Shown here one piece after another: positions 1 to 64,000 of a DNA stretch of 64,000 nt. Numbering within the stretch: the first letter of the stretch is position 1; every line of letters starts with the position of its first letter. A model generated the notes under the pieces. It was not told the DNA's origin. It was given only the letters and a program-made list of their open reading frames with translations, and did not search any database. A program made the position numbers and the translations under genes. The stretch comes from a virus, in the IMG/VR virus record IMGVR_UViG_3300036767_000362; one strand, given 5' to 3'.

Positions 1-949
1 TTAATTGTCTTTCTTCAATAGAACCTGATGTGTCTATTGCTACACAAATATCTATTGTTTTTTGATAGTCTGTTGCAGGTAAAATTATACCTGAATGCCA
101 AGCCTTTCTAGAAGGTCTAGCAAAAGTATAGTCGTTTCTTATAACACTTTGTATTTGTTGTTGTAATACTTGTTTCCAATCCATTTTAGGATTAGTAAAC
201 TGTTTAATCATTCTTTTAACTTCTTCAGGTAAATTATCTGGACCAGCCGCCTGTGCAGATTGCATTATACCTTCTTTAATTTCGTTTTTAATTTTTTCTT
301 GTTCGTCTTTGCTTATAATAGGTTGTTTACTTTTACCATTTTTATCTTTGTCTTTTTTACCTGCTCCACTTTCAGGACCTTTTTCCCAATCAATGTGATC
401 ATCTAATAGTTTTCCTAATTTGCTTATATCAATTTTTTTAGCATTTTTAAATAGTTCGTCATATACTTGTTCTGATGACCAACCGTCGTATTTGTGATCT
501 TGAAATATTTGAATGTCTTTAGGTTTTTCTCCTATTCCTTCTCTAACTAAAGTATTATTAACGAGATAGTCTGCCGCAATATTATAGAGCATTCTATTTC
601 TATTTTCGTTTCTTTGTAAGTGATTAAAAACACAATGAAGTATTTCGTGTCCTATTACAAATTCAATTTCTTTAGTGCTTAATTTGTGAAAAAATTCTGT
701 ATTATAATATAAATGTTTACCATCAGTAGCCGCCGTAGGACACCACTCATCACACTCTTGGATTTTTAATCTAGTAGCCATATTACCAAAGAAAGGATGT
801 CTTAATAGTAAACCAACTCTTGCTACAATAATTTTATCTAAAACTTCAGTTTTTATTTGTCTATACTCGTCGTCTGTACGTTTTATAACTGGTGGTTCTT
901 TAATTTTTTTAATTTTAGTTGTTGTTTTTATTTTAGTTTTTAACTGCAT
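1..949 (-). CDS. DUF2201-type metallopeptidase + vWA domain protein (3' end runs off window)
   Basis: Not in ORF track; hand translation from ATG at 949 (SD AAGGA): MQLKTK...HPFFGNMA...PTAATDG...GHEILH (HExxH)...NIAADYLVN...RPSRK...VAIDTSGSI (MIDAS). Directly downstream of a MoxR ATPase, the usual partner. Confidence 0.85.
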   Translation of the reverse strand, partial: MQLKTKIKTTTKIKKIKEPPVIKRTDDEYRQIKTEVLDKIIVARVGLLLRHPFFGNMATRLKIQECDEWCPTAATDGKHLYYNTEFFHKLSTKEIEFVIGHEILHCVFNHLQRNENRNRMLYNIAADYLVNNTLVREGIGEKPKDIQIFQDHKYDGWSSEQVYDELFKNAKKIDISKLGKLLDDHIDWEKGPESGAGKKDKDKNGKSKQPIISKDEQEKIKNEIKEGIMQSAQAAGPDNLPEEVKRMIKQFTNPKMDWKQVLQQQIQSVIRNDYTFARPSRKAWHSGIILPATDYQKTIDICVAIDTSGSIEERQL

Positions 950-963
950 AATTCCTTTTATGT

Positions 964-993
964 GTTATAGGGTACCCGAAAGCACCCTATAAC
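964..993 (-). other. Intergenic stem-loop with UUCG-type loop
   Basis: Minus strand GTTATAGGGT-GC-T(TTCG)G-GT-ACCCTATAAC, a perfect 10-bp stem extendable with G-U pairs. No U-tract follows, so it is more likely a stabilising/processing hairpin than an intrinsic terminator. Confidence 0.7.
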
Positions 994-1000
994 GAAAACA

Positions 1001-2119
1001 CTAGTCGGCGCTTTGAGCGGCGGTTATGTACTTGCCGTATTTTTCATGGAACTCATCGAAAACTTTGATAGCGTCTGGATCAAACGGTAACTGATATTGT
1101 GTAAGAGCTAATTTAATACCCATTACAACTAATTCAGTATCAAAATTGTCCATCATAAATCTAAGAAATTTTCCAACTTTGTCGTTAAACTTCTTATCTT
1201 TTTTATCGCAAGCCTCTTTAAGTTCATAACATAAAGAAACCGTTAGGGAGTACATTGCACTGATTTCTTTACTTTTCAACTTCTCTACTTTACCTTCTAA
1301 AATATCAGAAGGGTTAGGAAGTTGTGATGCCACCTTACGGTGAGCCATAAACTTAACTGCAAGTCCTTCGCCTACTGCACCGCTGACTAAATCAGTCACA
1401 GTGTTTTCATCTAAATCATCTGATAAGAGTTCACTTACAAATGACCAAGATCTCGGAGTAGCAAAAGACCTACTTGAAGATTTCGGTTCAAAGTCGTATA
1501 GGTCTTTTTTGCTAAAAGTCAAATAACCAATTACATCTTTATGGATGTTGTTGTCTACTGCCCATTCAAACCAATCATCAAAAACAGGTTTCATTTCTAA
1601 GTGAATGAATCTATTTGCTAATGGTGCCGGCATTCTATAAGTGATACCTTTATCTGCTTCTCTATTACCCGCCGCCACTATAACAACGTTTTCTGGTAAT
1701 TCGTAAGTACCTACTTTTCTATTCAATATTAATTGGTAAGCCGCCGCTTGAACACTTGGTGCCGCGGAATTCATTTCGTCTAAAAATAGAATAATGTTTT
1801 TATATTTTTTAGACATTTTTTGATCTGGTAATTCTGATGGAGATGCCCATTCCATAGATTTTGAATTACTATTAAAGTATGGTATACCTTTAATATCTGT
1901 TGGTTCCCATAAACTTAATCTTATATCAATAACATGAGCATTGATAGTTTTTGCAATCTGACGAACAACGTCTGATTTACCAATACCCGGACCGCCCCAT
2001 AAAAAGATTGGTCTTTTGATTTTTAAGGCGTGTAATATACTTGCCTTTGCTTTATTTGGTGATAATTGTCTAGTAGCTAAACTACTATCTGCTGATGTGT
2101 CTTTGCCTTTACGTGCCAT
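1001..2119 (-). CDS. MoxR-like AAA+ ATPase
   Basis: Walker A GGPGIGKS, Walker B LFLDE, AAGN, PAPLANRF, TPRSW motifs. Confidence 0.9.
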   Translation of the reverse strand: MARKGKDTSADSSLATRQLSPNKAKASILHALKIKRPIFLWGGPGIGKSDVVRQIAKTINAHVIDIRLSLWEPTDIKGIPYFNSNSKSMEWASPSELPDQKMSKKYKNIILFLDEMNSAAPSVQAAAYQLILNRKVGTYELPENVVIVAAGNREADKGITYRMPAPLANRFIHLEMKPVFDDWFEWAVDNNIHKDVIGYLTFSKKDLYDFEPKSSSRSFATPRSWSFVSELLSDDLDENTVTDLVSGAVGEGLAVKFMAHRKVASQLPNPSDILEGKVEKLKSKEISAMYSLTVSLCYELKEACDKKDKKFNDKVGKFLRFMMDNFDTELVVMGIKLALTQYQLPFDPDAIKVFDEFHEKYGKYITAAQSAD

Positions 2120-2154
2120 TATGTACTCCTTAAGTTACAATTGGTTTATTATTA

Positions 2155-2183: not shown

Positions 2184-2213
2184 ATGAAAAGAAGCTTAAA
2201 TGACCCGCATAAA

Positions 2214-5807: not shown

Positions 5808-6671
5808 TTAAGTTCCCCATTGATTTCCGAAAATATCGACGTGCAATCTTGGACTATATCTCCATCCTTTTTGCATTGCGAGTTCGGTAACATTTTTTGC
5901 GTTTTGTTGATATTCTTCATAACAACCTCCCACGGCCATACAATAGACCGGAGCATCGATCCCTGCTTTTTTATAAATTCCCACAGCTTTTGAAACTTCG
6001 TCAACATCGATGCTGTCACAAACGACAAATTTGAAATACAAATAACTATTGGGTATATCATAATATCCTTTAGCAACATCGGGTTTAATAGCATCGTCCC
6101 AACTTTCACCGGAAACGGTAAGTTTGGGAGAGCACGAAAACGTAATATGAATTTTAGTTTGATTCGTTGCCCACTCCAATAACCTTTCTCTGATAGGTTG
6201 AGTAGTGTTTGTTTCAAATGTAACATTTTTTAAATCTTGCATTTTAGGGTGTTCAAATAAATCAACATAATGTCTTTGAAAACCTAAAAATGGTTCTCCT
6301 CCTGTTATAACAAGATGTACATCTTGTCCGTTATTGCAAGTCCACTTGCCTTCTGGCGTTAAAGATAACAACTTATCAACTAAATCATCAATAGTATAAT
6401 CTGTTGTGAACTTACTAAATCTTGCGTCCCATGATGCATAACTATCACAACCTTTATGTACCAAAGGCAAATCTTTTAATTCTTTATATCTATCATCCTC
6501 AGCGTCTACTTTTAAATAATCGTCTGCAAGTTCGCCTCTTGGCATACCAAATCCACGACATTTAAAATTACATCCAAACAATCGTAAAAATATACTAGGT
6601 ACACCTACAAATCTTCCTTCGCCTTGTACACTATAAAAAGCTTCAGTAACTCTTAATTTGTCTGCATCCAT
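5808..6671 (-). CDS. queE: 7-carboxy-7-deazaguanine synthase (radical SAM)
   Basis: EAFYSVQGEG, FLRLFGCNFKC with third Cys after an insertion (GCDS), VITGGEP, ETN, SPKL, RYSPRLHV. Confidence 0.92.
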   Translation of the reverse strand: MDADKLRVTEAFYSVQGEGRFVGVPSIFLRLFGCNFKCRGFGMPRGELADDYLKVDAEDDRYKELKDLPLVHKGCDSYASWDARFSKFTTDYTIDDLVDKLLSLTPEGKWTCNNGQDVHLVITGGEPFLGFQRHYVDLFEHPKMQDLKNVTFETNTTQPIRERLLEWATNQTKIHITFSCSPKLTVSGESWDDAIKPDVAKGYYDIPNSYLYFKFVVCDSIDVDEVSKAVGIYKKAGIDAPVYCMAVGGCYEEYQQNAKNVTELAMQKGWRYSPRLHVDIFGNQWGT

Positions 6672-6678
6672 TGTTCAC

Positions 6679-7356
6679 CTAAATGTTATGTCCTTTCATA
6701 CTAAAGCAGATATCATAAAATTCTTTTTTAAGTGGTGCATGAGTATCAAAAGCGCCTAACATAATTGCAGTAGTCATATCATTGTCAGATTCTTTTACAC
6801 CACGTTGTGTTAAACAATGGTGTTTTGCTTTAACTACTACTGCTACATTAGGTGTTTTAGCATATTTTCTTAATGCTTCAGAAATTTGTGTAGTCATTTC
6901 TTCTTGTATCTGTGGTCTTTCTGCAATATGATGTACGATCCTATTAAATTTGCTTAAACCTATAACTTCATCTTCAGGTAATACTCCTACCCAACAATTT
7001 CCTACAATGTTTTGAAAATGGTGAGCACAGGTTGATCTAACACTAATTGGACCACTAGTGTATAAACTTTTATATCCCATATTCGGAAATGATGTAATTT
7101 TAGGTAATGAATTATATCTACCTGAATATATTTCATTAACATACATTTTTGCAACACGTTTTGCAGTTTCTTTTGTGTTATGATCATTTTCAGTATCAAT
7201 TACTAATGCTTCTAAAACTTCTTCAAATGCTTCTTCTACTTCTGTTTCTAATTCTTTTAATTCACCTTTCTCCAAATACTTGGCGATATTGTCGTTTGCA
7301 TTAAAACGTACCTTTTTGTCTATTAATCTTTGTTTGATCTTTTCTGATGTTCTCAT
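6679..7356 (-). CDS. folE: GTP cyclohydrolase I
   Basis: TAKRVAKMY, STCAHH, GLSKFNRIV, RPQIQE, HHCLTQRGV. Confidence 0.95.
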   Translation of the reverse strand: MRTSEKIKQRLIDKKVRFNANDNIAKYLEKGELKELETEVEEAFEEVLEALVIDTENDHNTKETAKRVAKMYVNEIYSGRYNSLPKITSFPNMGYKSLYTSGPISVRSTCAHHFQNIVGNCWVGVLPEDEVIGLSKFNRIVHHIAERPQIQEEMTTQISEALRKYAKTPNVAVVVKAKHHCLTQRGVKESDNDMTTAIMLGAFDTHAPLKKEFYDICFSMKGHNI

Positions 7357-7362
7357 ATTGTT

Positions 7363-7391
7363 ACATTAACAGATTTGTCCAATTTTGTCAA
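7363..7391 (-). promoter_or_regulatory. Sigma70-type promoter, leaderless folE transcript candidate
   Basis: TTGACA-N17-TAATGT-N6-ATG(7356), no SD. Confidence 0.5.
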
Positions 7392-7974
7392 TAATTCTTT
7401 GATAGACAATCTGATTTCCTTCCTCCGTATAATGGTTAACTATTCCTCTATGCTTTATCCAAGTTTGGCAAAGATCTAATTTGTTTTTTTCGGTAGCATA
7501 ATCGGTACTAATACTAAAATGGTCCAAATGTAAAGAAGTAATTGGTATTGATTTTGTTATTTCATTTCGTATTAATTCGTAAATATCCTTTTGGTATTCG
7601 TCGTCATAAAAATGCTTAAACCAATTTTGGGCAGTTTTAAGTCTAGAATTGAAAATCGATGTTTTGTCCATAATGTCATTATAAATTAAATCACAATTTT
7701 TATGTAATCCTTTTTTATGTACTGGGTGTTTAGATGTATGAATTCTACTAGGACTAGTATGTGAAACAATTACTAATCCATATGTTTGAATCCAAAAAGC
7801 ATCTAACATAGATTTTTGTCTTAATTGTTTTAATATTTTGTATTCTCCTACGCCTGCTTCTGCTAAATTATCTACTTGAAATTGTTTACCTAGCAACGTT
7901 GGCCACCCATCATATTTAGGCTTATGCCAAGGGCAGGCAAAACTATTTCCTATTATTAAAATTTTTTTATCCAT
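7366..7974 (-). CDS. SGNH/GDSL-like hydrolase or acyltransferase
   Basis: IIGNSF block I, NLAEAG block II, C-terminal NHYTEEGN. Confidence 0.55.
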   Translation of the reverse strand: MDKKILIIGNSFACPWHKPKYDGWPTLLGKQFQVDNLAEAGVGEYKILKQLRQKSMLDAFWIQTYGLVIVSHTSPSRIHTSKHPVHKKGLHKNCDLIYNDIMDKTSIFNSRLKTAQNWFKHFYDDEYQKDIYELIRNEITKSIPITSLHLDHFSISTDYATEKNKLDLCQTWIKHRGIVNHYTEEGNQIVYQRIIDKIGQIC

Positions 7975-8771
7975 GGAATATAATTCTCCGCTATTGCTTT
8001 ATGGTATTCAGTGTTATAATGTTCTTCGTCATCTAAAAAATGTTTATTTGGATCTATATGTTTGCTTTTCATATAATCTTCTATACTTTGTGAAGCAATT
8101 GTTGTAGCTTTTAAATCTCCATAGTAATTAAAATCAACTGGATGTTTGGATCTTGATCTCATTACTGATAGATATAATTTTGCATTATTATCTGCACAAA
8201 TATTATCCATTGTATAAATGTCTTTATAAAAACTTCTATGTTCTATATGTGTGTTTAAATCATAAAATAATTTGCATTCCATAAACGTTTGCTTTCTTAA
8301 ATCAGGTTTTATTAATCCTTGTTCAGGTGAAAATTCAAAACCTACAAATTTATCATAGTCTTCTTTAATTGGTTTATTAAATAATTGTATAGAATCGTCA
8401 ACTATAATACCATCTGAATATATTTTCACTAATGGTTTTTCTTTTGCAAGTGTTGTAAAATGATCTACCTTTATAGTTTTTTCTAATAATGTTTTATTAA
8501 ATGCAATTACAAATCTATTAAATGCCGCCAAAAGTATGTGTACTTCATCTATGTCATTATGTTTTTTAAACATACTTTTAAGCCAATCAGGATATACCAT
8601 ATTAGCAGTACCCGCCACGCAATATACAATTACTTCTTTATCATTTAACGTAGCATACTGTTCAGCAAAACTATTATCATTATAAAGAGAATAACTTCCT
8701 GGTCCTGTTTTACCTGGGATTGTTTGATAACCAGCTAAATGACTATCTCCCATAAACAATGTTTTAGACAT
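7956..8771 (-). CDS. SGNH/GDSL-like protein
   Basis: FMGDSH block I, C-terminal DEEHYNTEYH; start re-assigned to MSKTLF (8771). Confidence 0.5.
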   Translation of the reverse strand: MSKTLFMGDSHLAGYQTIPGKTGPGSYSLYNDNSFAEQYATLNDKEVIVYCVAGTANMVYPDWLKSMFKKHNDIDEVHILLAAFNRFVIAFNKTLLEKTIKVDHFTTLAKEKPLVKIYSDGIIVDDSIQLFNKPIKEDYDKFVGFEFSPEQGLIKPDLRKQTFMECKLFYDLNTHIEHRSFYKDIYTMDNICADNNAKLYLSVMRSRSKHPVDFNYYGDLKATTIASQSIEDYMKSKHIDPNKHFLDDEEHYNTEYHKAIAENYIPWIKKF

Positions 8772-9150
8772 TTTTCTTTGTGTAATCTCCTTTTCCAACT
8801 ATAACATTTCTTATTCCGCCTTTGGGATTTTTAGTATCTCCTTTTTTACGAGGTATTAAATGTACGTGCGGATACATTACAGTTTGTCCGGCACTTTCTC
8901 CTACATTAATTCCAATATTATAACCGTCAATAACTCCTTTAGCAACATTGTCATTAGCAATTTTTAATGCTAAATCAAAACATTTTATTATATTGTTTTG
9001 TGTTGCTTCTTTAGGCACAATTAAAGAATGACCTTCTGTTACTGGGTACCCGTCATTGTACCATACTATATCTTTAAATTCATGAACGACATCTTTCCAA
9101 GGTGCTCTATCTTCCTCTTGGGCTTTGTCTAATGTGTCTGGTTTAATCAT
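8764..9150 (-). CDS. HIT family nucleotide hydrolase
   Basis: DGYPVTEGHSLIVPK, GYNIGINVGESAGQTVMYPHVHLIPR; start 9150 by ATGA coupling. Confidence 0.9.
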   Translation of the reverse strand: MIKPDTLDKAQEEDRAPWKDVVHEFKDIVWYNDGYPVTEGHSLIVPKEATQNNIIKCFDLALKIANDNVAKGVIDGYNIGINVGESAGQTVMYPHVHLIPRKKGDTKNPKGGIRNVIVGKGDYTKKNV

Positions 9151-10131: not shown

Positions 10132-10692
10132 TTAATAAAGTTTTTCTATTTTGTCACAGATTGCTAGTTTTTTAGCCTCTTCAGCCGATAACCAAACGTC
10201 CTGTGGCGGTAATAATACTTCTTTAATTTTTTTCTCAGACATTCCAATACATTTTTTGTAATGTTCTACCATTCTTTTAGTTGATAGCTCAAATTCTTTA
10301 ACACGAGCATATAGTTCGTGTTCTTTGCCATCACTTCCCCAACTGTATTGATGAGATAATATTGAAGTATTAGGTGTAAGTATCCTTTCTCCTTTCTTTC
10401 CTGCAATAAAAATTAAAAATCCGGAAGAGGCAATTAATCCTAATCCTACAGTTTTAATAGGTATTGTACTAGCTTTGATTGTATCTATTAATGCAAATGC
10501 GGCATGAACATCACCGCCAGGTGAATTAATAATTAAAGTTAGTTTAGGCAATCTAGTAGAAGCAAGATTGCAATTCATAATCCATTGAATACAAGCTCTA
10601 CAAGAATCTGTATTAATTTCGTCCATTAACAAATAGAGACCATTTGTTAATAAATTATTTTTTTGTTCTGGTGTTGCTTTGTCTTTAGCCAT
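10132..10692 (-). CDS. clpP: ClpP-like serine protease subunit
   Basis: INSPGGDV, GLIASSG (catalytic Ser), ILSHQ (His), DVWLSAEEA. Confidence 0.88.
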   Translation of the reverse strand: MAKDKATPEQKNNLLTNGLYLLMDEINTDSCRACIQWIMNCNLASTRLPKLTLIINSPGGDVHAAFALIDTIKASTIPIKTVGLGLIASSGFLIFIAGKKGERILTPNTSILSHQYSWGSDGKEHELYARVKEFELSTKRMVEHYKKCIGMSEKKIKEVLLPPQDVWLSAEEAKKLAICDKIEKLY

Positions 10693-12706: not shown

Positions 12707-13621
12707 TTACCACTTAATATATCCTCTAGTATATCCTTTTGGTCTATTAAGACCTTCGTTAAATGCATCTTTCCATTCAGTATTTCTATCATAACCTTTT
12801 GTCCAAAAAGAAGATACATCAATTTTACCTGAATGTACTAATTCTACTGCTTTACGCATACACTCTATAAATCCACTATCTCTTGGACTAGGAAATTTTA
12901 AAGTCATTGAATTCCATAACATTGTAGAAAATGTTGTTGTAACTTTATTTGGTTTTTCAGCACCCATTATTAGTAATGCTTCTGGATTAAATATTTCTTT
13001 TTCAAATGATTCATTTCTATTATTAAGATCAATTACTACATCATATTTTCCGTCAATTGTATCTGTAAGTTTGTTACCCCATAATTCTTTATTACTATGA
13101 CCATATACAGTAATATTAAAATGAATATTTTTTTCTAGCATAAGAGTTAAAAGATAATGATATACAACCTGTGCTAAAAATCCACTTCCCATAATTAATA
13201 AGTTTGCTCCTTGTTTTCTACCTCTTCTTTCAATTGGCATTTTACTAGAGTTGATTATGTTTATACCACAAGCAACAGGCTCTATAATATATTTAGGATC
13301 ACATTCGGGCACTTTAACATAAGTTCCTATGTCACAATTATAAAAGTCTGCGTATGCAGGTTCACCTCTAGTTGCTACAAAGTCTCCTATATCTACATCA
13401 TATACATTTTTTCCTTTTTCTGTTACTTGTCCTAATCCTTCATGACCTTGCATAGTTAAAGGTAATGGTCCAAAGTTTCCTTGCATCATATCAATATCGC
13501 TTCTACATACTCCTGTATATTTTGCTTTAACTCTAATTTGTTCATTAGATATATCAGGAATATCTATAGTTCCTTCGTTAAATGTACCTTTACCTTCAGT
13601 GTATAATAGTTTCGTCATCAT
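12707..13621 (-). CDS. Zn-dependent medium-chain dehydrogenase/reductase
   Basis: GVCRSD and GHEG catalytic-Zn motifs, IEPVAC, GSGFLA Rossmann; lacks the structural-Zn lobe. Confidence 0.85.
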   Translation of the reverse strand: MMTKLLYTEGKGTFNEGTIDIPDISNEQIRVKAKYTGVCRSDIDMMQGNFGPLPLTMQGHEGLGQVTEKGKNVYDVDIGDFVATRGEPAYADFYNCDIGTYVKVPECDPKYIIEPVACGINIINSSKMPIERRGRKQGANLLIMGSGFLAQVVYHYLLTLMLEKNIHFNITVYGHSNKELWGNKLTDTIDGKYDVVIDLNNRNESFEKEIFNPEALLIMGAEKPNKVTTTFSTMLWNSMTLKFPSPRDSGFIECMRKAVELVHSGKIDVSSFWTKGYDRNTEWKDAFNEGLNRPKGYTRGYIKW

Positions 13622-14594
13622 TTGTTATTGTTTCGTGTATCCATAAATCGTATTCTAATTGTTTTTGCCAAAATGCATTGTCATCTTTATGAGTTATACA
13701 ATCTGCAATCATTCGTTCATATGCACTTTCAGGACAAATACCTATTTGAAATGGATGTTGTTCGTCTTCTTGTTTAGTTTCTCCTGATTTGTTAAAATGT
13801 ACTGCAATATCATCTTCTTGTTCATCATCTTTTCTTCCTGATGCAGAAAAACCTTTACCTGCTTTCCAATCTGCTGTAAGTCTATATGTTTTTTCATTAT
13901 TGTTAAATTCTAATTCTACTAAATCGTCTACATCATATACTCCATTAGGATTCATAGTTCCATAATTTCCTGCTCTATTATCACCTGTTGTTTCATATGT
14001 TTCTTCTATTAACTCTTTTAAAGTATTTTTTTGTTCTTTGTGAAATTTTGTAAGTTTGAAATCTTTATAAGTATTAGGATTTATTGCAATAAAAATACTC
14101 AATAAGTGTGGTAATAAATCTCGAGATACTCCACCATACGCAAGAGCTTTGTTTGTAAACCAACCACCAGGATTAGGTATAAAGTTTATATTACGCCAGT
14201 TTATATCAATTATATCATTATCGTCTACTTTTGTTTTAATACCATCTAACCATATTTTAGTTCTCCACATATTATTTTTTGTCATAATAAATTTTGTATT
14301 TTTATTAGAACTTACTAAAATTTGCCATTGTTGAGCATTTTGTACACCAGGTTTTTCAATAAAAACCATTTTACTATGCGGTGCAATTTTTTGTGCAATA
14401 GTATAATGTGTATTATTAGGTGTACAAATATGAACAGTATCAAATTCTGGATGGGTTTTTAATGCTGTTGTTAATTCTAAAAACATAGGATTGTGTTTTG
14501 AATTAATGTCCACAGTAATTACTTCGTGTCCCATTTTTTCTAAAACACGTTTATATAATTGTCCGAACCCTAATCCTACTATTAAACTTTTCAT
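13596..14594 (-). CDS. Gfo/Idh/MocA family oxidoreductase
   Basis: IVGLGFG, VHICTPNNTH, IEKP, GGVSRDLLPH. Confidence 0.85.
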   Translation of the reverse strand: MKSLIVGLGFGQLYKRVLEKMGHEVITVDINSKHNPMFLELTTALKTHPEFDTVHICTPNNTHYTIAQKIAPHSKMVFIEKPGVQNAQQWQILVSSNKNTKFIMTKNNMWRTKIWLDGIKTKVDDNDIIDINWRNINFIPNPGGWFTNKALAYGGVSRDLLPHLLSIFIAINPNTYKDFKLTKFHKEQKNTLKELIEETYETTGDNRAGNYGTMNPNGVYDVDDLVELEFNNNEKTYRLTADWKAGKGFSASGRKDDEQEDDIAVHFNKSGETKQEDEQHPFQIGICPESAYERMIADCITHKDDNAFWQKQLEYDLWIHETITNDDETIIH

Positions 14595-14595
14595 A

Positions 14596-14787
14596 TTAAT
14601 TAAATCTTTTTGTAAAGTTTTCTATTTCTGTTTTTATTGCAAGTTTAATTTTTTTAAACTTTTTTAATAATGCTTTTCCTTCCCAACTTCTATCTTCGTC
14701 CCTTTCGTTTTCCATTTCTTCGACTTTTCTGTGATAATAATCAAACTCGTACTTTAACTTTTTAAGTTTTTTATCTTTCTTCGCCAT
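14596..14787 (-). CDS. Small coiled-coil protein (DUF465-like)
   Basis: 63 aa, helical hairpin character, KKIKLAIKTEI; TAATG-coupled to dpdA. Confidence 0.5.
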   Translation of the reverse strand: MAKKDKKLKKLKYEFDYYHRKVEEMENERDEDRSWEGKALLKKFKKIKLAIKTEIENFTKRFN

Positions 14788-16260: not shown

Positions 16261-16986
16261 TTATTTTGTTTGAGCTGGTAAAATGTAATTGTATTCACCA
16301 ACACCACTATCTACAGTTATTTGCATTGCTCCTTGATCAGAAATTTTCATACTCATTCTGCCATCAAGACTTAATATACTAATAACTTGTTGAATAGGCC
16401 AACTCCATGCTTTTTTCAATTCTCCAGCATCGTGTTGGAATATAAAATTACCTGCGTGTGAATTTGCATCACCAAAATAAAATACTAAATTTTTATTTTC
16501 AGTTTTTACAGTGAATACAGTTTCTTCTACGTGTGCCGCCGCTTGTAATTTTAATCTTTGTATAGACGCTACACTTGGTTCAAACTCTATATCCCAAGAT
16601 GTACCTTTAAATTTAACAGATTTTAATTTCTCGTTAATAATTTCAGTACTCATAAATCTATAATCATTTTGAAAATCACCTTTTTCGTTTTCAAAGTGAA
16701 TGTTAGTTGGAACCTTTTTTCCATTTCTGACAGCTGATACAACATTAAGTTTTGCATTTTTATCATACTCTGGACATTTTAAATGAAGTGCTAATTTATC
16801 TAAATTAGGCATACCAAATACACCATCGAATTCATTTACTTTTTCGTTAGTGTTCGCACTTAATATAACTGAACGATCTTCGGCCATACTTTCTATTTTT
16901 GTTTGCTCTTCATTTGTGATTTTTACTAAACTTAAAAACCCTAATGAATGCGTATGAGCAACAATGTCTTGTAAGATACTTTTCAT
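16261..16986 (-). CDS. Probable DNA polymerase sliding clamp (gp45/PCNA-like)
   Basis: 241 aa, alternating beta/alpha pattern ending YNYILPAQ; next to PolB and exonuclease; an RFC-type loader is present at 41352. Inferred from size and context. Confidence 0.55.
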   Translation of the reverse strand: MKSILQDIVAHTHSLGFLSLVKITNEEQTKIESMAEDRSVILSANTNEKVNEFDGVFGMPNLDKLALHLKCPEYDKNAKLNVVSAVRNGKKVPTNIHFENEKGDFQNDYRFMSTEIINEKLKSVKFKGTSWDIEFEPSVASIQRLKLQAAAHVEETVFTVKTENKNLVFYFGDANSHAGNFIFQHDAGELKKAWSWPIQQVISILSLDGRMSMKISDQGAMQITVDSGVGEYNYILPAQTK

Positions 16987-17047: not shown

Positions 17048-17584
17048 TTATCTTTCAACTCCAAAATATCTATATGCCTTTTGAACACCTCTAGCTTGAT
17101 ATTTGCAATCAGCCAAAGCATTATGCAAGTCCGTTCTAGGGCTTACTCTCATGTCTTTTGGCAACATATTTTGCAATGTTCTAGAATCTCTGATCTGCCA
17201 GAAGTTCCATGGTACAGGTTTTCCTAGTTGTGCATATAAATTTTGTAATATTGCATAGTCAAATAATGGACCTTGGCACCAAAGTTCATCTAATCCTACG
17301 CACCATTTGTTAAGAGTTTTTGAAAACTCTTCTAAATTAATTCTTCCTTCGTCTGTAAATGCTTCTTCTTTAACTTCTTTATCTTGTTGCCCCCACCATT
17401 CTAATGTTTTCTCATTTACACTTCTTCCCATTTTTGTTTGTTCATCTACATCTATTCTAAGATATAAATCAGTATGAGGTGTTTGAGTATTATATGGATT
17501 AAACTTAACTGCTCCTAATGTAAGAATCGTAGCACTAGGTGTAGTGTCTAAAGTTTCTAAATCTATCATTCCGTGTGTAGCCAT
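17048..17584 (-). CDS. DEDDh 3'-5' exonuclease (DexA/Rv2179c-like)
   Basis: MIDLETL, WCQGPLFD, RDSRT, HNALADC; start MATHG. Confidence 0.85.
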   Translation of the reverse strand: MATHGMIDLETLDTTPSATILTLGAVKFNPYNTQTPHTDLYLRIDVDEQTKMGRSVNEKTLEWWGQQDKEVKEEAFTDEGRINLEEFSKTLNKWCVGLDELWCQGPLFDYAILQNLYAQLGKPVPWNFWQIRDSRTLQNMLPKDMRVSPRTDLHNALADCKYQARGVQKAYRYFGVER

Positions 17585-17585
17585 A

Positions 17586-20252
17586 TTATTCAAATTCAAA
17601 CATAGAACTAAATGTATTATCTTGTAGTGTAGATTGGATATCCCAGTTTAGTTCTCCTAGTAAGTTTCCTAATTTATTGTCAATTAAAGTAGATTCCATT
17701 GCGCCACCATCAAAAGGTAATTCCTTAAACCATTTTGGAATACGTAGTTGATCCGTAGGATATGCAACAGATGTATATTCTAATGGATTCTTTTTAAGTT
17801 TACATACAATAACTTTCATACCATCTACTATTTCCATGGAATGTTTATCTCCATGCATTCTTTTAAGGTTGTTCCAGTTCATACTTGCTCTAACGTGACC
17901 CGGCATATTAGCTTTTCCTTGTCTATTTTCTTTTCTTACATATTCTACAAGATTGTTAACTCTTTTAGGAGATCCTTTTTCCCAACCTGGACGTTGTTTA
18001 AAACTAATTCTAAATTCAGTAATTCTTTCTAAAACTTCTTTTTCTGTTTTTTTAGTTAATACCATTAATAATAATTCACTTAAAAAGTCTTGGACAAACA
18101 CAGGAGTATCTGATCTTTTTAAATCTAATCCCATTGCTTTTACTTTGCCTGGATTGTCATTATCTAATCTAGTGCCTTCTACTTCATAATTTAATACTGC
18201 ATATCTTTTTTTAGTAATAAAAAGTCCTGTTTCTGCAACAGATTCTTTACCTGCTTCAATAACGTCCCCTCTATTTTTAGGACAATGGAATGCTTCTAAC
18301 ATAAAGTCTTTAAAACTAGTATTGACTTCTTCTGCAACTTTATCATATAATTTTATAACACTTTCTTTATTCCAAGGTATTTTACCTGTTTCTATTTCTT
18401 TTTTTAATATAGGATGTGCAGAAAAATAAGCAGAATCAGTATCTCCATATATTATTGCTTTTCCTAAATGGTCATATGCTCCTGTTGTTACTTCATTAAT
18501 TTTAGCCGCCATATGTTTAGTAATTTGTCTACCTGATAATGTTGTAGATTGTCCTATTCTTTTATCAAAAAATCTACAACCTGGATTTAATATTGCACCA
18601 TATAAACTATTCAAGTTAATTTTTTTCACTAATTGTCTTCTATCCCAGAATCCTATTTCTGCTTCGTTATTAGCATCTACGGCTTTTTGTTTCATTTCTT
18701 GTAAATGTTGTCTTTCAGCATACCATTTTTTTAATAGTCCTGGTATAACGCCTGTAAAATCACTAGTAAAAATTGTACCATTGGCACTTAACATTAAAGA
18801 AGCATTACTATCAAATATCAATTTATAAATTTGTGCTCCACTCATTGTTTCGCTTTTGCCGTCTTCCCAGTCCACAGTAATATTAAAATCTTTTCGTTGA
18901 GACATTACTGCTTCATATTCCAATGATCCAAACTGACCTTCCCATGCTGATGCGAATGATTTTTTTTGTAATGACATTTGTTCGTCTATAAAAGCATCAG
19001 TAGATTCAGGTTTTAATTGTCCGACAATACATTCAGGAGCCATATTCAATGCTCTAATAACAGATGGATATAGTGATTTAATATCCATTGCACCTATCCA
19101 ATTATGTAATCCTTTTTTAGGAAATGCCACATAAGCACCTGCCGCCGATTCAGTAGAGTGAGGTTCACGTTTAATTCTATTAGGTACTTGTACTCCTCTT
19201 TTGTGTGCTTCGTTAATAATGGCTTGTTCTGTTACTGCAACTGCTCCTAATGTTGTTTGTAGTAATACCGTATTTTGATGTGCAAGTTCATTAGTTAAAG
19301 TTATAAATTTAAATTTTTTATCTAACTTATCTAGTAATGCAACGTCTTGTCTATTGTACTCAATAAATTTTGCAAAGTCATCATTATATAATTGATCTAA
19401 CGATCCTTCATATATAGTTTTTGTTTCTCCTAGTTCGTGATCACCAATTGCATCTAGTCTATATGAATGTCGTTCTTCATATGTGTATTTTCTATAAAGT
19501 TCTAAACTATCTAAATGTACTCGTCCGATTAAATCATATGTTTCTTGTGTTCTTCCAAATCTATCAAATTCTCTTTTTTTAGGTAATTGTTTCCATAAAC
19601 AAAAACGTCTTGTATCATCTTTACTCAATATTTTAGATATTCTATTAATTAAATACGGAAGATCATACCCTTCACTATTCCATCCACTTAATACATCTGC
19701 TTCTTCTATAATATCTAAAAATGCAGTTAGTAATTGAGATTCATGTTCATAAATTGTTACGTTTTCAAAATTTTTAACAGATTCTTTTGCTCTAGTCATT
19801 GACATATTTTTAGGTTTAAGAGCAAACGTAACAAGAGTATCTAACCATTTTAAATGTACACTAATTGCAGTTACTGGCATAAAAGGATCACTTGGTAAAG
19901 AAAAACCTTTTTCGGGATCAAAGTCTGCTTCTATATCAAAGAATGCAATTTTTAATTTTGGTGCATCTGAATTAATATAGTTTTCACTTAAACATTGGAA
20001 GATTGGATTAACGTCCGATTCGTATAATTTTTTGTTTCTATTGATTGCAAGTTCTTTATGGAAATCTTTTGTGTTTTTACATACGATTCTAGTTAACGTC
20101 TTACCGTCGACGCTTTTATGTTTACCTCTAGGATCTTCGTAGTAAAATGTATATTTGATTGGATATTCTCTGAAAATTCTTTTTCCGTTATCTCGTTCTA
20201 CCACTCTTATGATATCTTGACTTCTATCGAAATAACCATTTATGTAACTCAT
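17586..20252 (-). CDS. Family B DNA polymerase
   Basis: Exo I FFDIE, Exo II GWNSEGYDLPY, Exo III YNRQDV; motif A DIKSLYPS, B KINLNSLYG, C YGDTDS; KKRYA. Confidence 0.97.
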   Translation of the reverse strand: MSYINGYFDRSQDIIRVVERDNGKRIFREYPIKYTFYYEDPRGKHKSVDGKTLTRIVCKNTKDFHKELAINRNKKLYESDVNPIFQCLSENYINSDAPKLKIAFFDIEADFDPEKGFSLPSDPFMPVTAISVHLKWLDTLVTFALKPKNMSMTRAKESVKNFENVTIYEHESQLLTAFLDIIEEADVLSGWNSEGYDLPYLINRISKILSKDDTRRFCLWKQLPKKREFDRFGRTQETYDLIGRVHLDSLELYRKYTYEERHSYRLDAIGDHELGETKTIYEGSLDQLYNDDFAKFIEYNRQDVALLDKLDKKFKFITLTNELAHQNTVLLQTTLGAVAVTEQAIINEAHKRGVQVPNRIKREPHSTESAAGAYVAFPKKGLHNWIGAMDIKSLYPSVIRALNMAPECIVGQLKPESTDAFIDEQMSLQKKSFASAWEGQFGSLEYEAVMSQRKDFNITVDWEDGKSETMSGAQIYKLIFDSNASLMLSANGTIFTSDFTGVIPGLLKKWYAERQHLQEMKQKAVDANNEAEIGFWDRRQLVKKINLNSLYGAILNPGCRFFDKRIGQSTTLSGRQITKHMAAKINEVTTGAYDHLGKAIIYGDTDSAYFSAHPILKKEIETGKIPWNKESVIKLYDKVAEEVNTSFKDFMLEAFHCPKNRGDVIEAGKESVAETGLFITKKRYAVLNYEVEGTRLDNDNPGKVKAMGLDLKRSDTPVFVQDFLSELLLMVLTKKTEKEVLERITEFRISFKQRPGWEKGSPKRVNNLVEYVRKENRQGKANMPGHVRASMNWNNLKRMHGDKHSMEIVDGMKVIVCKLKKNPLEYTSVAYPTDQLRIPKWFKELPFDGGAMESTLIDNKLGNLLGELNWDIQSTLQDNTFSSMFEFE

Positions 20253-20352: not shown

Positions 20353-20443
20353 GAATGCTGTTCATCGCTTCAATAATTTCTTTTATAGTCCAAGTGCCTT
20401 TTATTTTCTTTTCTAGTTCTTTTGCCTTAGTTAGTTTGCTCAT
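20336..20443 (-). CDS. 35-aa microprotein coupled to rplL
   Basis: Not in track; ATGA overlap with the rplL stop; MSKLTKAKELEKKIKGTWTIKEIIEAMNSILDKDQ. Confidence 0.5.
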   Translation of the reverse strand: MSKLTKAKELEKKIKGTWTIKEIIEAMNSILDKDQ

Positions 20444-22697: not shown

Positions 22698-23192
22698 TTA
22701 TAACCAGCCTTTAAATCCAGCATTTGGATTTTTATAAATTGAACTATTTTTCTCATTTTCTCTTGCTTCTACACTAATGACCCAAGCTCGACCTCTAGAT
22801 TTTTCTCGTAAAAGTTTATCAACCCAATCACAAAGATAATGTGCTGTACCTTCCATACCAGGTCCCATTGGATGAGTTCTAATTCTGCATACACCTGCTT
22901 GTTCTAATTTTCTAAAAGTATCCATGTGAGGATCATCTTCGTCAAGTACTAAAGTATGATCATACATATGATCCAAATGTGCTTTTACATCTTTTAAATC
23001 ACCATAGTCTACTACAAAGCCTTCTTTTGTAAAATTTTTACAAGCAAATACAAAATGAAAACTTCTGCTGTATCCGTGAATTACATGACAGTTGCCATCG
23101 TGTCTATATTGTCTATGAGCACAAGGAAAGTTAAAAAAACTTTTTGTGGAAGTAAATTGTTCTTCTGTTACGTTATCATAATCTTCAGCCAT
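22698..23192 (-). CDS. queD: 6-carboxy-5,6,7,8-tetrahydropterin synthase
   Basis: CAHRQ...CHVIHGYS, VVDYGDLK, DHT, E...A, VEARENEKNS. Confidence 0.88.
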   Translation of the reverse strand: MAEDYDNVTEEQFTSTKSFFNFPCAHRQYRHDGNCHVIHGYSRSFHFVFACKNFTKEGFVVDYGDLKDVKAHLDHMYDHTLVLDEDDPHMDTFRKLEQAGVCRIRTHPMGPGMEGTAHYLCDWVDKLLREKSRGRAWVISVEARENEKNSSIYKNPNAGFKGWL

Positions 23193-25817: not shown

Positions 25818-26063
25818 CTAGTCTACTTTGATTATATTTTTAATAGCTTGATGTAGTTTTTCTGCAGTTGCAACACCTAATTGTCTCTGTGCATACTCTT
25901 TATCTCCATCGATAAGAGCCGCTACTTGATCAATCATTTCAAGTTTAGTAATACTACCGTTCTTGAAATTTGTGTTTATTGTTATTGCACTTTCGGCTAT
26001 AGTTTTAGCCCAGTTATTTTCTGCTACTATTTCTGCTAATGCTGTTTCGTCTGCCGCCGCCAT
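25818..26063 (-). CDS. Hypothetical protein
   Basis: SD AGGAG and TATAAATA at 26091-26098. Confidence 0.7.
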   Translation of the reverse strand: MAAADETALAEIVAENNWAKTIAESAITINTNFKNGSITKLEMIDQVAALIDGDKEYAQRQLGVATAEKLHQAIKNIIKVD

Positions 26064-53195: not shown

Positions 53196-56100
53196 TATAC
53201 TCTACCTACCACCATTTCTATTACACCAACACTTGGGTTCATATGATCTTCTAATGCTTTACCTAATACTGTTCCAACTCTAGGATCAGGACTAGATGAA
53301 GCGTGTCCTCTAACACTACTTGTTACTAACATATCACCTTTTCTACACATTCCAGTAACTTTAACTTTAACTCTACCTTGTAAAGCAATTGGTGTTCCAC
53401 CTTCTTGTGCTGAATTCATTAAGTATGCTGGTTTGTCTGAAACAACTCCAGCTACTCTTGTATCTTCAGATAATTGAGTAGTTGTAACTTCTTTATCTCC
53501 GCCGAATATAACAACTGTACCTATTTCATAATTGTCATCTGCTGTATAATTTTCCGCCAAGTCAGCATATAGAGATCTTGTTGCTGTTCCATCAAATATA
53601 TTTGCGTACATTGTATTATATCTTCTACTGGAATCACCAATATTAAATGTCATATTGGCATCACCAGGAACAATACCTTGTGTTGTAACTAATAATGGAA
53701 CTGATCCATCAGCTACAATTGCCACTCTTCCTTCAGCACTATCATCAGTGTCTGACACGTATGCACTACTTTGACCTATAGCTATTCCTGTTGGATTGTT
53801 TGCTTTTCCTGTAGATTCAATAAATTTAGTGTATATATGATCCACTGCAAGAGCGCCATCACTAGCACCTTGAGTATTACTTGCTGATGCATCTGCACCA
53901 CCTATATCTAATCTTCTACCAGGAAGTGAAGTAACTGTATTAGCCTGTGTACTTCCTATACCAGTAGCAAAATCTATTCCACCAGGAGTTGTTATATTAA
54001 GTGTAGATGCGGAACTATCTAATGCAAGATTACCATCTATTTTTAATCCTGCTAAATCCGTTACACCAGTTGTATCTGTTTTAACTATACTATTAACTTC
54101 TCCTGTTTTTGTAACGTTAGTAACTTTGTAAACACCAGCACTTTCTTTTATAAGTGTTTCACCGGGATCACTAGCGGCATCTAATTCTGTAGTAAAGTCA
54201 GCATCAACTACTGCTCCACCTTGAGAAATTATATCTGAAAATGTAACTGCATTTACGTCACCAGTACCTGAATCAGTTCGTCCATATGCTTGGTATTGAT
54301 CTAATTGAGGTAAATCAGCAAAGTCTATACCAGAAGAAGATAATTCAACCCAACCATTAGTAACTGTAAAGTCACCTGAATCAAAACTTGCAAGTCCTAA
54401 ATCTGCTTGACTAATTCCTGAAGCATTTGCTCTTGAAGTTGCGGCATTCATATTCAACTTACTTTGAGCTATTGCGGCATCTGATTTAACATCTGCATTA
54501 ATAATTACATTTGATGCAATATTAAATGTAAGTTCAGTTTGTGTTGCAGTTCTATTTGCAGTCATTTCTACATCTGAAGCTGTAACAACTGCATTACCCA
54601 TTTCATTTATTGCAGTATCTATAACTTGAGCAGTAACTCCACCACCAGTATCAATTGTATCTGCTGTAGTAAATTGTGTAGGACTAGATGTCCATGTGTA
54701 AGTAATTCTTGTGGCATTAACCGCTCCAGGTAATACAAGAACTTCTACATCTACAATTGTTCCTGTTGCACCAGTTACTGATCCTGTAAAAGTATCACTA
54801 ACTGCAAAATTTCCACCAACTGCAGGTACAGTATACATTCTGTATTTGCCATTGAATATTAAAAGTTGTGCTTCAGCTAAATTTCCAATATTAACGTTTC
54901 TAATATTTTCTATTTGATCTGTTTCGTATATAATATTATCTACATAACTTTTTGTAGTTGCATCTTGATCCGAAGACGGATCTGATAAACCTGTTAATTT
55001 AAATCCACCAACTGCCATGTGATTTGTAAATGGAATAGAACCGTCTCTAGCAATAGTACCTGCTCCAATTGGATTTCCTACTAAAGTAGTTGCATGGTCA
55101 AAACCTAATCTTCTATTAACATATTCTCTAACAGCTGATTCTGTTGGTACACTATCAGTAGAATTGTCTACCATTGAACCATCTGTACTAAATTCTGCTA
55201 CAACAACACCTCTTTTAAATCCTATACCATCTAAATTACTAATTGCAATTGCCGCCGCAAATGAAACTGTTCCTGTTGCTTGATCAACTGTGAAATATTT
55301 TCCTACTCTAAAGAAACCATCTTGGTCAGTACTAACATAGTAAACTCTACCTTTTAATTTTTCAACAGTTTCATTAGTTTGAGATGATGCCGTTGTTGCA
55401 TCACCATAAATTACATTAGGGAAGTTTGTAGTATTAAAACCACCTGTTCCAATATCTAAGAAATCATGATTTGATGCTCTTGCTGTTGAAACAAATACAG
55501 TAATTGAAGCTGGTTCTGTAGCAGACAATCCAACTCTAAATGTAGGAGAACCTCCATTTGTTGCCACATATCCAGTCATTGCACTGTGAATTCCTGCGCC
55601 TATTGGAGTAGGATTAATATTTGATACATCTGTAATTTCTACTGTAGCATATGTTGTTCTATCTACGTAATTTGCAACTTTGTGAGTTTTACCATCCCAA
55701 CCAAATGTCATATCGCCATTGTTTAATCTTGCAATATCTGCCGCTTCTGGAATTGTGTTAATTGCAATTACAACGTCACCAATTGTGTGACCCATTGTTG
55801 TTCCTGAACCAGCATGAGTATTATTTTGTGCTTCAGTTTCATTAAGAGACATCTTAACATAATCGTAAACGTCATCAAAAGCAATTAAGGCAGTATTAGC
55901 CGGTAAAGCCACACCAACTGGATTTGATGTTGAATAAGAAATACTTCTGTAAGTTATAGTACTTGTTTCATCAAATACTACAGCAGTTGTTGGTTTAGAA
56001 GGTGCTGTATTATTAACATCACTAAAGACGAATTGAGAATTTGCTCTAATTGTTACTGTTTGATCATCTGCAAGAGCGGCTTTTAATCCTGTTGTAGATG

Positions 56101-61889: not shown

Positions 61890-61906
61890 GCTTAAATACT
61901 GTTACT

Positions 61907-62359: not shown

Positions 62360-62360
62360 C

Positions 62361-62705
62361 TTATTTTTTAAGTTTTTTATGCTCTTTTCTTCTTTCTTTT
62401 CTAGCTTTTATTAAATCAACTTTAATATTTTTTAATTCTTTTGTAATTTCAGCAAATTTAACACTAGCATATTTTTTTAATTTTACAAAGTTGCGTATAG
62501 TTCCTACAACCCACCACCACCATATTCCGGCAATTATAGCAAATAAAATGCATATTAGCCCTAGGGTATATTCTAATAATGATTGAAAGTCGAATGCGAC
62601 TACTAGCAAAACAATAACAAGAGCAATTAGTGGACCTATTTTGGCCAACCAACTCCAAAGGTTAATTTGATTTTCTAGTCTCCGATAGTGCCGAAAGATT
62701 TCCAT
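62361..62705 (-). CDS. Two-TM membrane protein with basic C-tail
   Basis: Two hydrophobic segments, WWWW; probable start MEIFRH. Confidence 0.6.
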   Translation of the reverse strand: MEIFRHYRRLENQINLWSWLAKIGPLIALVIVLLVVAFDFQSLLEYTLGLICILFAIIAGIWWWWVVGTIRNFVKLKKYASVKFAEITKELKNIKVDLIKARKERRKEHKKLKK

Positions 62706-63553
62706 AAACCAGGTGTTCCTGTTTTTGTACATACCCAACCGATAACGTTACCTGGAGTAGGATTACTATTCCATGTAATATCTCCTTGAGAATGTGCGCC
62801 TTCTGATGGTGCTTCAGTACCTGTGTGGAATCGTTTGCCTTGAAATCTTATTGGTCCGTCTACATCTAATGATATGTTTTCTGCAATTTGATTAACGCCT
62901 ATACCAACTTTGCCGTAGACATTCATTTTCATTTGGCCACCTAGTGTTCCAATTTGAACATCACCATGTGCACCAATTGTTATTCTGTCTGTATTATCTG
63001 TTTGAATTTTTAATGAGGCTGTTGTATAAGTTCCTATTTCTGCGTTGTCTTCGTTAGGTTGTACTCTAAATTCTACTTCATTAGATGAAACTGATAATTG
63101 ACCATTAGGAATATCAGTTCCTACACCAAGTCTCATAAAGCCTGCATCGTAGAAAATAAATGAGTCTAAGTTAATATTACCATTAACTGCTAAACCTTCA
63201 AGAACGCCTACTTTTTTAAGATTAGAACTTTTAATTGTTGGTCCTAAACTAGTTGCATTTATTACTTCTGTATTATCTATAGAATAACTAGCGTCTTTGT
63301 GTAGGTCAATACTATTGCTACTCCAAATTCTGTCAGGGTTTCCTTGGAAACTAAATGTTTTAGTATTTCCATATCCACTCCATTGTAGCCCTTTGCCGTA
63401 TATGGCATTGGATTCAGTACCTTTAAAATTGATTGATTTATCCACATTTGTTACAGTAGGGGCTTCATCTACAGAGGCAGTTATATTCTCTATAGCATTA
63501 CCCAATGTAACTAGTCCAGCTTTAACGGAAATTATGTCTTCTCGTATACTCAT
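62675..63553 (-). CDS. Virion/fibre-like protein
   Basis: Beta-rich, ends GDITWNSNPTPGNVIGWVC...GTPGLWKSFG; GATAAATA 7 nt upstream of MSIRE. Confidence 0.6.
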   Translation of the reverse strand: MSIREDIISVKAGLVTLGNAIENITASVDEAPTVTNVDKSINFKGTESNAIYGKGLQWSGYGNTKTFSFQGNPDRIWSSNSIDLHKDASYSIDNTEVINATSLGPTIKSSNLKKVGVLEGLAVNGNINLDSFIFYDAGFMRLGVGTDIPNGQLSVSSNEVEFRVQPNEDNAEIGTYTTASLKIQTDNTDRITIGAHGDVQIGTLGGQMKMNVYGKVGIGVNQIAENISLDVDGPIRFQGKRFHTGTEAPSEGAHSQGDITWNSNPTPGNVIGWVCTKTGTPGLWKSFGTIGD

Positions 63554-63563
63554 ATGCAATTAT

Positions 63564-64000
63564 TTATCTAATAGTCCGAAGTAATATAACGTCTGGATTA
63601 ATACGTCCATTTAATTTTAGGCCCATAGCTTTAATATCATCAAGGTCTTCTTTTAGTTTAGTCTTAGGGCCATTTATAAAGTGTGGTAGCTGTTCTGGGG
63701 GTTTTCTGAGTGTTTTTTGTACACTAATTTCTTGATTAAACCTAATTATCGACGTACCTTTTACACCTAATCCAGTACCATCTCTTTCTTGACCTTGTGG
63801 ATCATATACAGATGTTACGTAGTATCCTATCTTTCTAGTTTTAGTATTATAAACCCATAGTTCTTCACAGCCTATTATTTCTTCTGGATTTATACTAATC
63901 AATTTAAGCCTATCGTCTTCACGTTTATATTTTAATTTTGAAATTGCTTTTGCTTTATTAACAGGTTTTCTTTTCCTTGATTTTCTATTAGCATTAGCTA
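63564..64000 (-). CDS. Hypothetical phage protein (5' end outside window)
   Basis: Frame is open to the window edge (...ANANRKSRKRKPVNKAKAISKLKYKREDDRLKLISINP...). Confidence 0.75.
   Translation of the reverse strand, partial: ANANRKSRKRKPVNKAKAISKLKYKREDDRLKLISINPEEIIGCEELWVYNTKTRKIGYYVTSVYDPQGQERDGTGLGVKGTSIIRFNQEISVQKTLRKPPEQLPHFINGPKTKLKEDLDDIKAMGLKLNGRINPDVILLRTIR

Follow-up and report, generated by a model that had tools for sequence, protein, structure and literature searches.

Elimination of restriction sites is a long-known counter-defence of phages. The studies of Sharp (1986) and Rocha (2001) are said to be the classical ones on this subject, and a classical case is the Staphylococcus phage K, which is free of GATC. 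The chloroviruses encode restriction-modification (R-M) systems, e.g., CviAII acting at CATG and CviJI acting at RGCY, protect their own DNA by methylation and keep the sites. In non-temperate double-stranded DNA phages, complete site elimination is typical for orthodox Type II specificities (Rusinov et al., 2018, PMC6286503). The DpdA of phage CAjan acts on guanine in the GA and GGC contexts, and cleavage persists at sites whose guanine stands in a GC, GT or GGT context (Kot et al., 2020, PMC7544227). The sequence analyzed here, a stretch of 64,000 nucleotides from the IMG/VR virus record IMGVR_UViG_3300036767_000362 (hereafter the window, meaning the whole stretch at its full length), combines a total absence of the word GCWGC (W is A or T), which is cut by TseI (bioRxiv 10.1101/380360), with a predicted gene set for deazaguanine modification of DNA.

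Absence of GCWGC from the window and its sister records

Exact counting across the 64 kb gave zero GCAGC and zero GCTGC, in full agreement with the complete avoidance proposed in the initial annotation. The expected number of sites was 43.8 under a first-order and 58.1 under a maximal-order Markov model and 44.4 ± 5.6 in dinucleotide shuffles of the window, while synonymous-codon shuffling within the 78 called genes never yielded fewer than 40 sites in 300 trials (mean and deviation in Table 1). With none seen against 44–58 computed, the observed to expected ratio (O/E) was nowhere near 1, and the effect was stronger than stated initially, the earlier estimate of roughly 20 expected sites being too low. 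In a ranking of all 5-mers, GCAGC was the most under-represented (maximal-order z = -7.6). The overlapping 4-mers GCAG, CTGC, GCTG and CAGC were common in the window (106–272 copies), and the words GATC, GANTC, GGCC, CCGG and CCWGG, previously noted as present, had an O/E of 1.02, 0.91, 0.74, 1.16 and 0.93, respectively. The purged word is a short palindrome matching a known restriction specificity (TseI/ApeKI), and its neighbouring words were not purged: GCSGC (S is G or C) was found 63 times against 14.6 expected, a 4.3-fold over-representation which is a by-product of recoding. In the window's own lineage, GCWGC was the sole total purge, accompanied by milder deficits of GGATCC (2/17), GCGC (9/33) and CATG (97/260).

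The same state was found in two sister records, G001 (48.6 kb, 96% nucleotide identity to the window; 0 sites vs. 49 expected) and G002 (71.7 kb; 0 vs. 47), including the 50 kb of G002 that lie outside the window's region (0 vs. 36).

Recoding of alanine pairs and its cost to the proteins

The initial annotation was drawn to the site by the alanine codons, and its reading of them was confirmed by exact counts. All 61 Ala-Ala pairs of the window start with GCG (46) or GCC (15), and not a single GCA-GCN or GCT-GCN pair was found. Among the 1275 Ala codons not followed by Ala, 89% are GCA (756) or GCT (380), the rest being GCC (91) and GCG (48); at the 11% use of GCG/GCC elsewhere, the chance of 61 out of 61 such pairs is approximately 0.11^61. 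The five strings quoted as examples were all recovered on the minus strand, two of them in one gene (1757–1768 and 1739–1750) and the other three at the positions given in Table 1.

The Ala-Ala dipeptides themselves were also depleted. Their O/E was 0.63 in the window, 0.62–0.71 in the set of window, G001 and G002, 0.80 and 0.87 in two further relatives (C57 and G004, see below), and 1.09–1.18 in the unpurged G003 and G005, while the Gly-Gly, Ser-Ser, Val-Val, Leu-Leu and Thr-Thr dipeptides showed no comparable trend across the same genomes. The protein-level cost scales with the purge, part of which was thus paid in amino acid changes. About 40% of the Ala-Ala dipeptides are gone.

Distribution of the purge across the phage family

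The relatives of the window were collected with its family-B DNA polymerase (PolB) as a marker: 381 stretches in IMG/VR encode a relative of this protein, and the best 80 were fetched and used for grouping and for the tree. The relative G003, 357,559 bp long and 100% complete according to CheckV, shares synteny with the window at 200,960–273,395 of its own sequence; the phage of the window is therefore a marine, uncultured jumbo phage of ca. 350 kb, about one fifth of which is covered here. Another relative, C57, is a strongly purged 335-kb contig of G006 (loci L121–L137) and belongs to group K.

In the PolB tree, GCWGC was absent from group A (the window, L001–L017 and L034; 19 rows), from group B (14 rows), from the pair L061 and L066, nested among site-rich relatives, and from L035, which is sister to the site-rich G003. 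Groups A, B and C as well as L035, all standing apart on the tree, had zero counts, and the 80 relatives thus include at least four site-free groups. The site was at expectation in groups E, G and I, and its O/E in the complete G003 was 0.89. The fraction of GCG/GCC as the first codon of Ala-Ala pairs was 1.00 in the purged groups and at background level (0.09–0.19) in groups E, G and I. A middle state, which looks like a decaying relic of the purge, was seen in groups D, F, H and K, with a fraction of 0.45–0.63 (vs. 0.08–0.30 elsewhere in the same genomes). In G004, with a GCWGC O/E of 0.46, the surviving sites had ordinary flanks, and the survivors in groups D, F and H and in G004 look like the result of neutral re-accumulation. 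The site-free state was inherited within groups, and both its gain and its decay were observed across the family. The purge has thus been gained or lost several times; the family shows the measurable decay of a purge relic once selection stops.

The relatives also made it possible to distinguish between a DNA word and a codon pair. In the window together with the extension by G002, 72 of the 75.5 expected GCWGC sites (ca. 95%) fall in the Ala-Ala frame, and the 3.5 expected out of frame in the window's lineage, with none seen, are a weak test at such numbers. Pooling the other site-free groups raised the out-of-frame expectation to about 36 sites, of which none was found, nor were there any in non-coding DNA. 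The control groups E and I had 113, 13 and 11 sites in the three frames against shuffle expectations of 110.8, 10.1 and 8.4. At conserved Ala-Ala columns of PolB, the purged groups used GCG or GCC only, and the other groups used GCA and GCT as well. Relatives that are unconstrained thus encode the same proteins with GCW-GCN pairs, and for the family the effect is therefore on the DNA word and not on the codon pair. The absence of GCWGC is neither an effect of composition nor a general codon-pair effect.

The purge is lineage-specific: relatives either keep GCWGC or have purged other sites. Near-total purges were found of AGCT (2/329) and ACATGT (1/42) in group A1, of CTAG (3/396) and AGCT (11/372) in group B, of CATG (4/152) in group D, of GTGCAC in groups H (0/33) and E (1/30), and of AGCGCT (0/26) and GTGCAC (2/55) in G003. 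Several further 6-mers were erased in other lineages of the family, and some groups have purged at least five different palindromes. With the controls at expectation and the sister lineages purged of other palindromes, the initial proposal of selection against one short palindrome of the TseI/ApeKI type held up well. Such a group-to-group mosaic of erased Type II-type palindromes is the signature of restriction-site avoidance. The combinations included GCWGC alone in the window, and GCWGC with AGCT, GCWGC with AGCT and CTAG, CATG with GTGCAC, and AGCGCT with GTGCAC in its relatives. Such a combination fingerprints the restriction enzymes that a lineage meets, and it could be matched to the R-M genes or methylomes of marine metagenome-assembled genomes in order to assign hosts to phages that lack one.

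The probable selecting enzyme and its source

The most probable explanation for this pattern is a restriction endonuclease in the host population which cuts GCWGC and has imposed a long and strong selection for a site-free phage lineage. We infer a restriction enzyme as the selecting agent and the host as its source; a host enzyme is favoured mainly because many different palindromes were erased across the family, a mosaic that speaks for diverse Type II systems among the hosts. The candidate would be either an orthodox Type II enzyme with the TseI/ApeKI specificity or a BbvI-type IIS enzyme reading GCAGC. A phage genome carrying the site would be cut on entry, and site-free variants would win. 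Since nearly all potential sites in such an AT-rich genome lie on GCW GCN pairs, the purge proceeded mostly by synonymous middle-base changes in Ala-Ala pairs (GCA/GCT to GCG/GCC) and, to a lesser part, by the loss of Ala-Ala dipeptides.

Several points weigh against a host enzyme of this kind. Within the window, site avoidance and an Ala-Ala codon-pair effect look alike, and they can be told apart only through its relatives. For the lineage of the window, the readable DNA (from the window itself, G001 and G002) amounts to about 135 kb of the estimated 350 kb, so that a phage-borne nuclease could lie in the unread 60% or so. No cognate host R-M system for GCWGC came to light, and the only matches of a phage gene in 185,579 species genomes were mis-binned phage contigs. 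Finally, GCWGC methylases occur in aquatic bacteria, and in these waters the methylation has so far been reported only in Chloroflexi (bioRxiv 10.1101/380360; PMC8919816), which are unlikely hosts for a phage with 32% G+C.

The genome search started from a clade-specific, probably acquired GMP-reductase-like gene (20823–21875), which had eight matches (L093–L100), all in metagenome-assembled contigs. Their bins were labelled with seven unrelated taxa, namely Verrucomicrobiales, Rickettsiales, Coraliomargarita, Woesebacteria, Neomarinimicrobiota, Rhodobacteraceae and Pseudomonadales, and the matched GTDB contigs included NYWG01000276.1, PALK01000009.1, PAAN01000001.1 and PBPT01000016.1. In the three loci with the most readable flanks (L094, L096 and L098, in PALK01000009.1, PAAN01000001.1 and PBPT01000016.1), the flanks matched phage G003, and PBPT01000016.1, from the 'Neomarinimicrobiota' bin, is a near-complete phage genome of 335,231 bp with the PolB of the family. 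The matches are accordingly mis-binned phage contigs without a host signal. The literature on marine GCWGC consisted mostly of matches to a 16S primer, with real methylation of this word only in Chloroflexi. The literature on phages with pcyX and alaS loosely suggests an alphaproteobacterial host.

The open reading frames (ORFs) of C57 without a homologue in G003 encode phosphoenolpyruvate carboxykinase, an alternative oxidase, a copper protein of the plastocyanin/azurin family, phosphoribosyl pyrophosphate synthetase, a PstS-like protein with parts of an ABC transporter and a class II tRNA-synthetase-like protein. Some auxiliary metabolic genes of the C57 type are typical of cyanophages. A cyanobacterial host is possible.

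A total purge is equally predicted if the phage itself encodes a lone GCWGC endonuclease without a methylase, destroying the DNA of the host or of competitors and being immune because its own genome is free of sites ('restriction without modification'). The absence of the methylase families PF00145 and PF01555 from five family records, the complete G003 among them, and the unseen majority of the window's genome are in line with such an arrangement, which we nevertheless regard as unlikely. No nuclease, restriction or methylase families were found in the window ORFs of at least 150 aa (Pfam, PHROGs and PADLOC), and a profile search against the PDB gave neither a restriction enzyme nor a methylase. 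Restriction and nuclease families were likewise absent from those G001 and G002 ORFs for which the unpurged G003 has no counterpart (Pfam), and, together with methylases, from the matches listed for the 86 C57 ORFs without a G003 homologue (Pfam). A lone gene resembling a restriction endonuclease was thus not recognized in the ca. 135 kb or in the families listed as special to C57, a search that novel folds would escape. The groups with at least five purged palindromes would, moreover, need as many phage nucleases.

Two genes near PolB were examined as candidates. The Rv2179c-like exonuclease gene (17048–17599) is located beside PolB in the purged groups A and B and in L035, and it was the sole candidate near PolB that seemed to track the purge; however, the purged group C is without it, and the unpurged G003 as well as C57 have the gene elsewhere in the genome. 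A 97-aa ORF (23192–23482) is found beside PolB only in the purged groups A and B and is missing from the purged group C. Their position near PolB represents phylogenetic co-inheritance and not a cause of the purge.

Very improbable is a methyl-directed enzyme (Type IIM, or Type IV of the BisI-like kind), whereby a methylase of the cell would mark GCWGC on replicating phage DNA for cutting by a modification-dependent nuclease. Enzymes of the BisI family are reported to cut methylated sites of the GCNGC type (PMC4926085, PMC11347163), and GCWGC methylases are known from aquatic bacteria. The scheme, however, depends on two components that both act on the DNA of the phage; GCSGC, likewise read by BisI-type enzymes, was not avoided and was even enriched; the five phage records searched held no methylase of the two families named above; and only weak avoidance is attributable to modification-dependent enzymes (Rusinov et al., 2018, PMC6286503).

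Causes other than restriction, i.e., a translational Ala-Ala codon-pair constraint, a mutational bias (e.g., through deamination of methylated cytosine in GCWGC), or an artefact of assembly or sequencing, are largely refuted and can hardly be entertained. The concentration of expected sites in the Ala-Ala frame of the window's lineage is compatible with a frame-specific cause, but the other purged groups are equally without out-of-frame sites, and GCW-GCN is found at the expected rate in close relatives whose proteins are the same and whose codon usage is similar. Deamination would lead to GTWGC or GCWAC and hence to a changed amino acid instead of the synonymous middle-base change seen, dozens of metagenome assemblies made independently show the same state, and the purges of unrelated palindromes in the sister groups have no codon-pair explanation.

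Deazaguanine genes and the flanks of surviving sites

The window encodes a DpdA-like protein with a tRNA-guanine transglycosylase (TGT) fold, together with FolE, QueD-like and QueE-like proteins (Table 1). The DpdA-like protein of 487 aa had no sequence-level match in Pfam, PHROG or PDB, and its DSGGFQ motif (D102-S-G-G-F-Q) was invariant in 12 homologues. QueC was not recognized in the window. The predicted fold and the accompanying precursor genes support a DpdA-type system of guanine replacement. Among the families listed for the C57 ORFs without a G003 homologue there is a QueC.

The initial annotation suggested a comparison of relatives with and without this gene cluster. A DpdA-like gene with FolE, QueD-like and QueE-like genes is present in the window, but the purge does not track this gene: homologues of the DpdA-like protein were found in every PolB group, purged and unpurged alike, which rules out the presence of dpdA as an explanation and makes the purge independent of having or lacking the gene. 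Carrying the predicted DpdA-type system has spared no lineage from erasing G-containing sites. In the window, 11.6 ± 2.4 G-flanked (GGC-containing) GCWGC sites were expected and none was seen; as even these sites were purged, no protection is evident there. The GA-containing GGATCC is among the words depleted in the window's lineage, and group B is devoid of the GGC-containing GGCGCC. The initial suggestion that the enzyme is one which 'the deazaguanine modification cannot block' is plausible and consistent with these data.

A different picture was obtained for C57, in which 35 of the 413 expected GCWGC sites survive. All 35 read GGCWGC or GCWGCC, as compared to 28–32% in relaxed or unpurged genomes. 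The survivors were G-flanked in the same way in L067 (5/5), L065 (2/2), L068 (1/1) and L095 (5/6). No such enrichment was present in the relic groups D, F and H and in G004 (9–33% vs. the background of 28–32%), and the flank effect does not reach beyond C57 and its near kin. A GA/G flank rule was also considered for CATG, CTAG and AGCT, the survivors of which were too few for a decision; six of nine AGCT survivors in group B had identical flanks and probably represent one conserved locus.

By analogy with CAjan, a GGC-directed modification shielding the flanked sites would explain the survivor pattern of group K. It is conceivable, albeit doubtful, that the purge maps reveal the sequence specificity of the phages' own predicted 7-deazaguanine modification, with a GGC shield in C57, L065, L067 and L068 and none in the window's lineage, which has additional redox genes around dpdA. 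If true, the lack of exemption in the window would imply either a different chemistry or specificity of its modification or an enzyme that the modification cannot block, and the target motif of hypermodification in uncultured phages could be deduced from their sequences. No paper was found in the literature that tested TseI, ApeKI or BbvI on deazaguanine DNA.

The neighbourhood of dpdA in the window (12707–14787, 7366–8798 and 10132–10692, minus strand) holds a Zn-dehydrogenase, a Gfo/Idh/MocA oxidoreductase, a small ORF, two unknown ORFs and ClpP. In this neighbourhood they were found in group A only, the group of the window, without homologues at this place in the other PolB loci, in G003 or in C57; a distant ClpP homologue (32%) is present elsewhere in the G003 genome.

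Genomic context of the window

The window has a G+C content of 32.5%, and 76 of its 78 called genes are located on the minus strand. Apart from PolB, the replication genes include a clamp loader and a 5'-3' exonuclease, and ThyX is also encoded. Protein handling is represented by ClpA/B-like protein, ClpP, DnaJ and peptide deformylase, and the structural genes encode baseplate and tail-fibre proteins, one of which has 2187 aa. The polymerases of cultured phages were at most 48% identical to the window PolB, the top ones being from Sinorhizobium phage Phosso and Agrobacterium phage Atu_ph07, followed by jumbo phages of the Rak2/PBECO4 type. Nucleotide searches against cultured phages with 36 kb of the window gave no match, and the family of this phage is known from metagenomes only.

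Table 1. Positions of the purged stretch, of the recoded alanine runs and of key genes in the window.
Feature	Position	Strand	Evidence
GCWGC-free stretch	1..64000	both strands	0 vs. 44–58 expected; 50.6 ± 3.3 in synonymous-codon shuffles
Recoded Ala-Ala and Ala-Ala-Ala codons (GCG GCG GCT; GCG GCA) in the gene of a MoxR-like AAA+ ATPase	1739..1768	-	exact string matches; GCG first
CAA GCG GCG GCA, recoded Ala-Ala-Ala run	16534..16545	-	exact string match
ATG GCG GCG GCA, recoded Ala-Ala-Ala run at a gene start	26052..26063	-	exact string match
TTT GCG GCG GCA, recoded Ala-Ala-Ala run in the gene of a 2187-aa tail fibre-like protein	55250..55261	-	exact string match
QueE-like radical SAM enzyme and GTP cyclohydrolase I (FolE), genes for the 7-deazaguanine precursor	5808..7356	-	PHROG QueE-like; Pfam GTP_cyclohydroI
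TGT-fold (DpdA-like) transglycosylase, 487 aa	14787..16250	-	AlphaFold2 pLDDT 87; Foldseek top: bacterial tRNA-guanine transglycosylases, probability 1.0, TM 0.42–0.53
PolB, marker for collecting and grouping the 80 relatives	17586..20252	-	Pfam DNA_pol_B; 48% identity to the polymerase of Sinorhizobium phage Phosso
QueD-like 6-pyruvoyl-tetrahydropterin synthase	22698..23192	-	Pfam PTPS

Just upstream of PolB, at 20440–20814 on the minus strand, there is a gene of ribosomal protein L7/L12 (Pfam Ribosomal_L12 and Ribosomal_L12_N), which has no homologue in G003. Among other words, TAAATA was strongly under-represented in the window (51 vs. 128–164 expected), and the T4-late-promoter-like word TATAAATA had only two copies (ca. 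25322 and 26091, minus strand), which lie on the gene strand and precede a gene start by 13 and 35 nt. This pattern suggests selection against stray promoter-like words.

Comparison with known systems

As in the chloroviruses, short palindromes such as CATG and AGCT play a part in how viral and host DNA is handled in the large virus family to which the window belongs. In contrast to the chloroviruses, the sites were erased in this family, and no methylase of PF00145 or PF01555 was found in the five records.

With the dPreQ0 system of CAjan, the window has in common a predicted TGT-fold DpdA-like protein and the genes for FolE, QueD-like and QueE-like proteins. The guanines of GCWGC stand in the GC context, which is left unmodified by the CAjan enzyme, and, in accordance with the GGC motif of CAjan, every survivor in group K was GGC-flanked (e.g., C57 and L067). 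The window differs from CAjan in that its GGC-flanked sites were purged as well and GGATCC was depleted; a CAjan-like shield is not evident in its lineage.

The purged word is identical to the recognition sequence of TseI and ApeKI (GCWGC, Type IIP) and of BbvI (GCAGC, Type IIS), and avoidance cannot tell IIP from IIS. The sequences examined held no gene of such an enzyme or methylase. Enzymes of the Fnu4HI/Bsp6I type, which read GCNGC, are ruled out because GCSGC was not avoided.

A close resemblance is also to the surveyed cases of restriction-site avoidance (Rusinov et al., 2018, PMC6286503): a Type II palindrome of 4–6 bp was fully eliminated from the window, largely by synonymous choice and in a lineage-specific manner, and its relatives were purged of other palindromes. 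Unlike the surveyed cases, it concerns an uncultured marine jumbo phage with a DpdA-like gene set, and its family holds together all the stages, from a total purge through a flank-exempt purge and a decaying relic to none at all. The window represents a textbook-clean new case of phage counter-defence in an abundant family of uncultured marine jumbo phages, and the practical value of the purge is that of a host clue.

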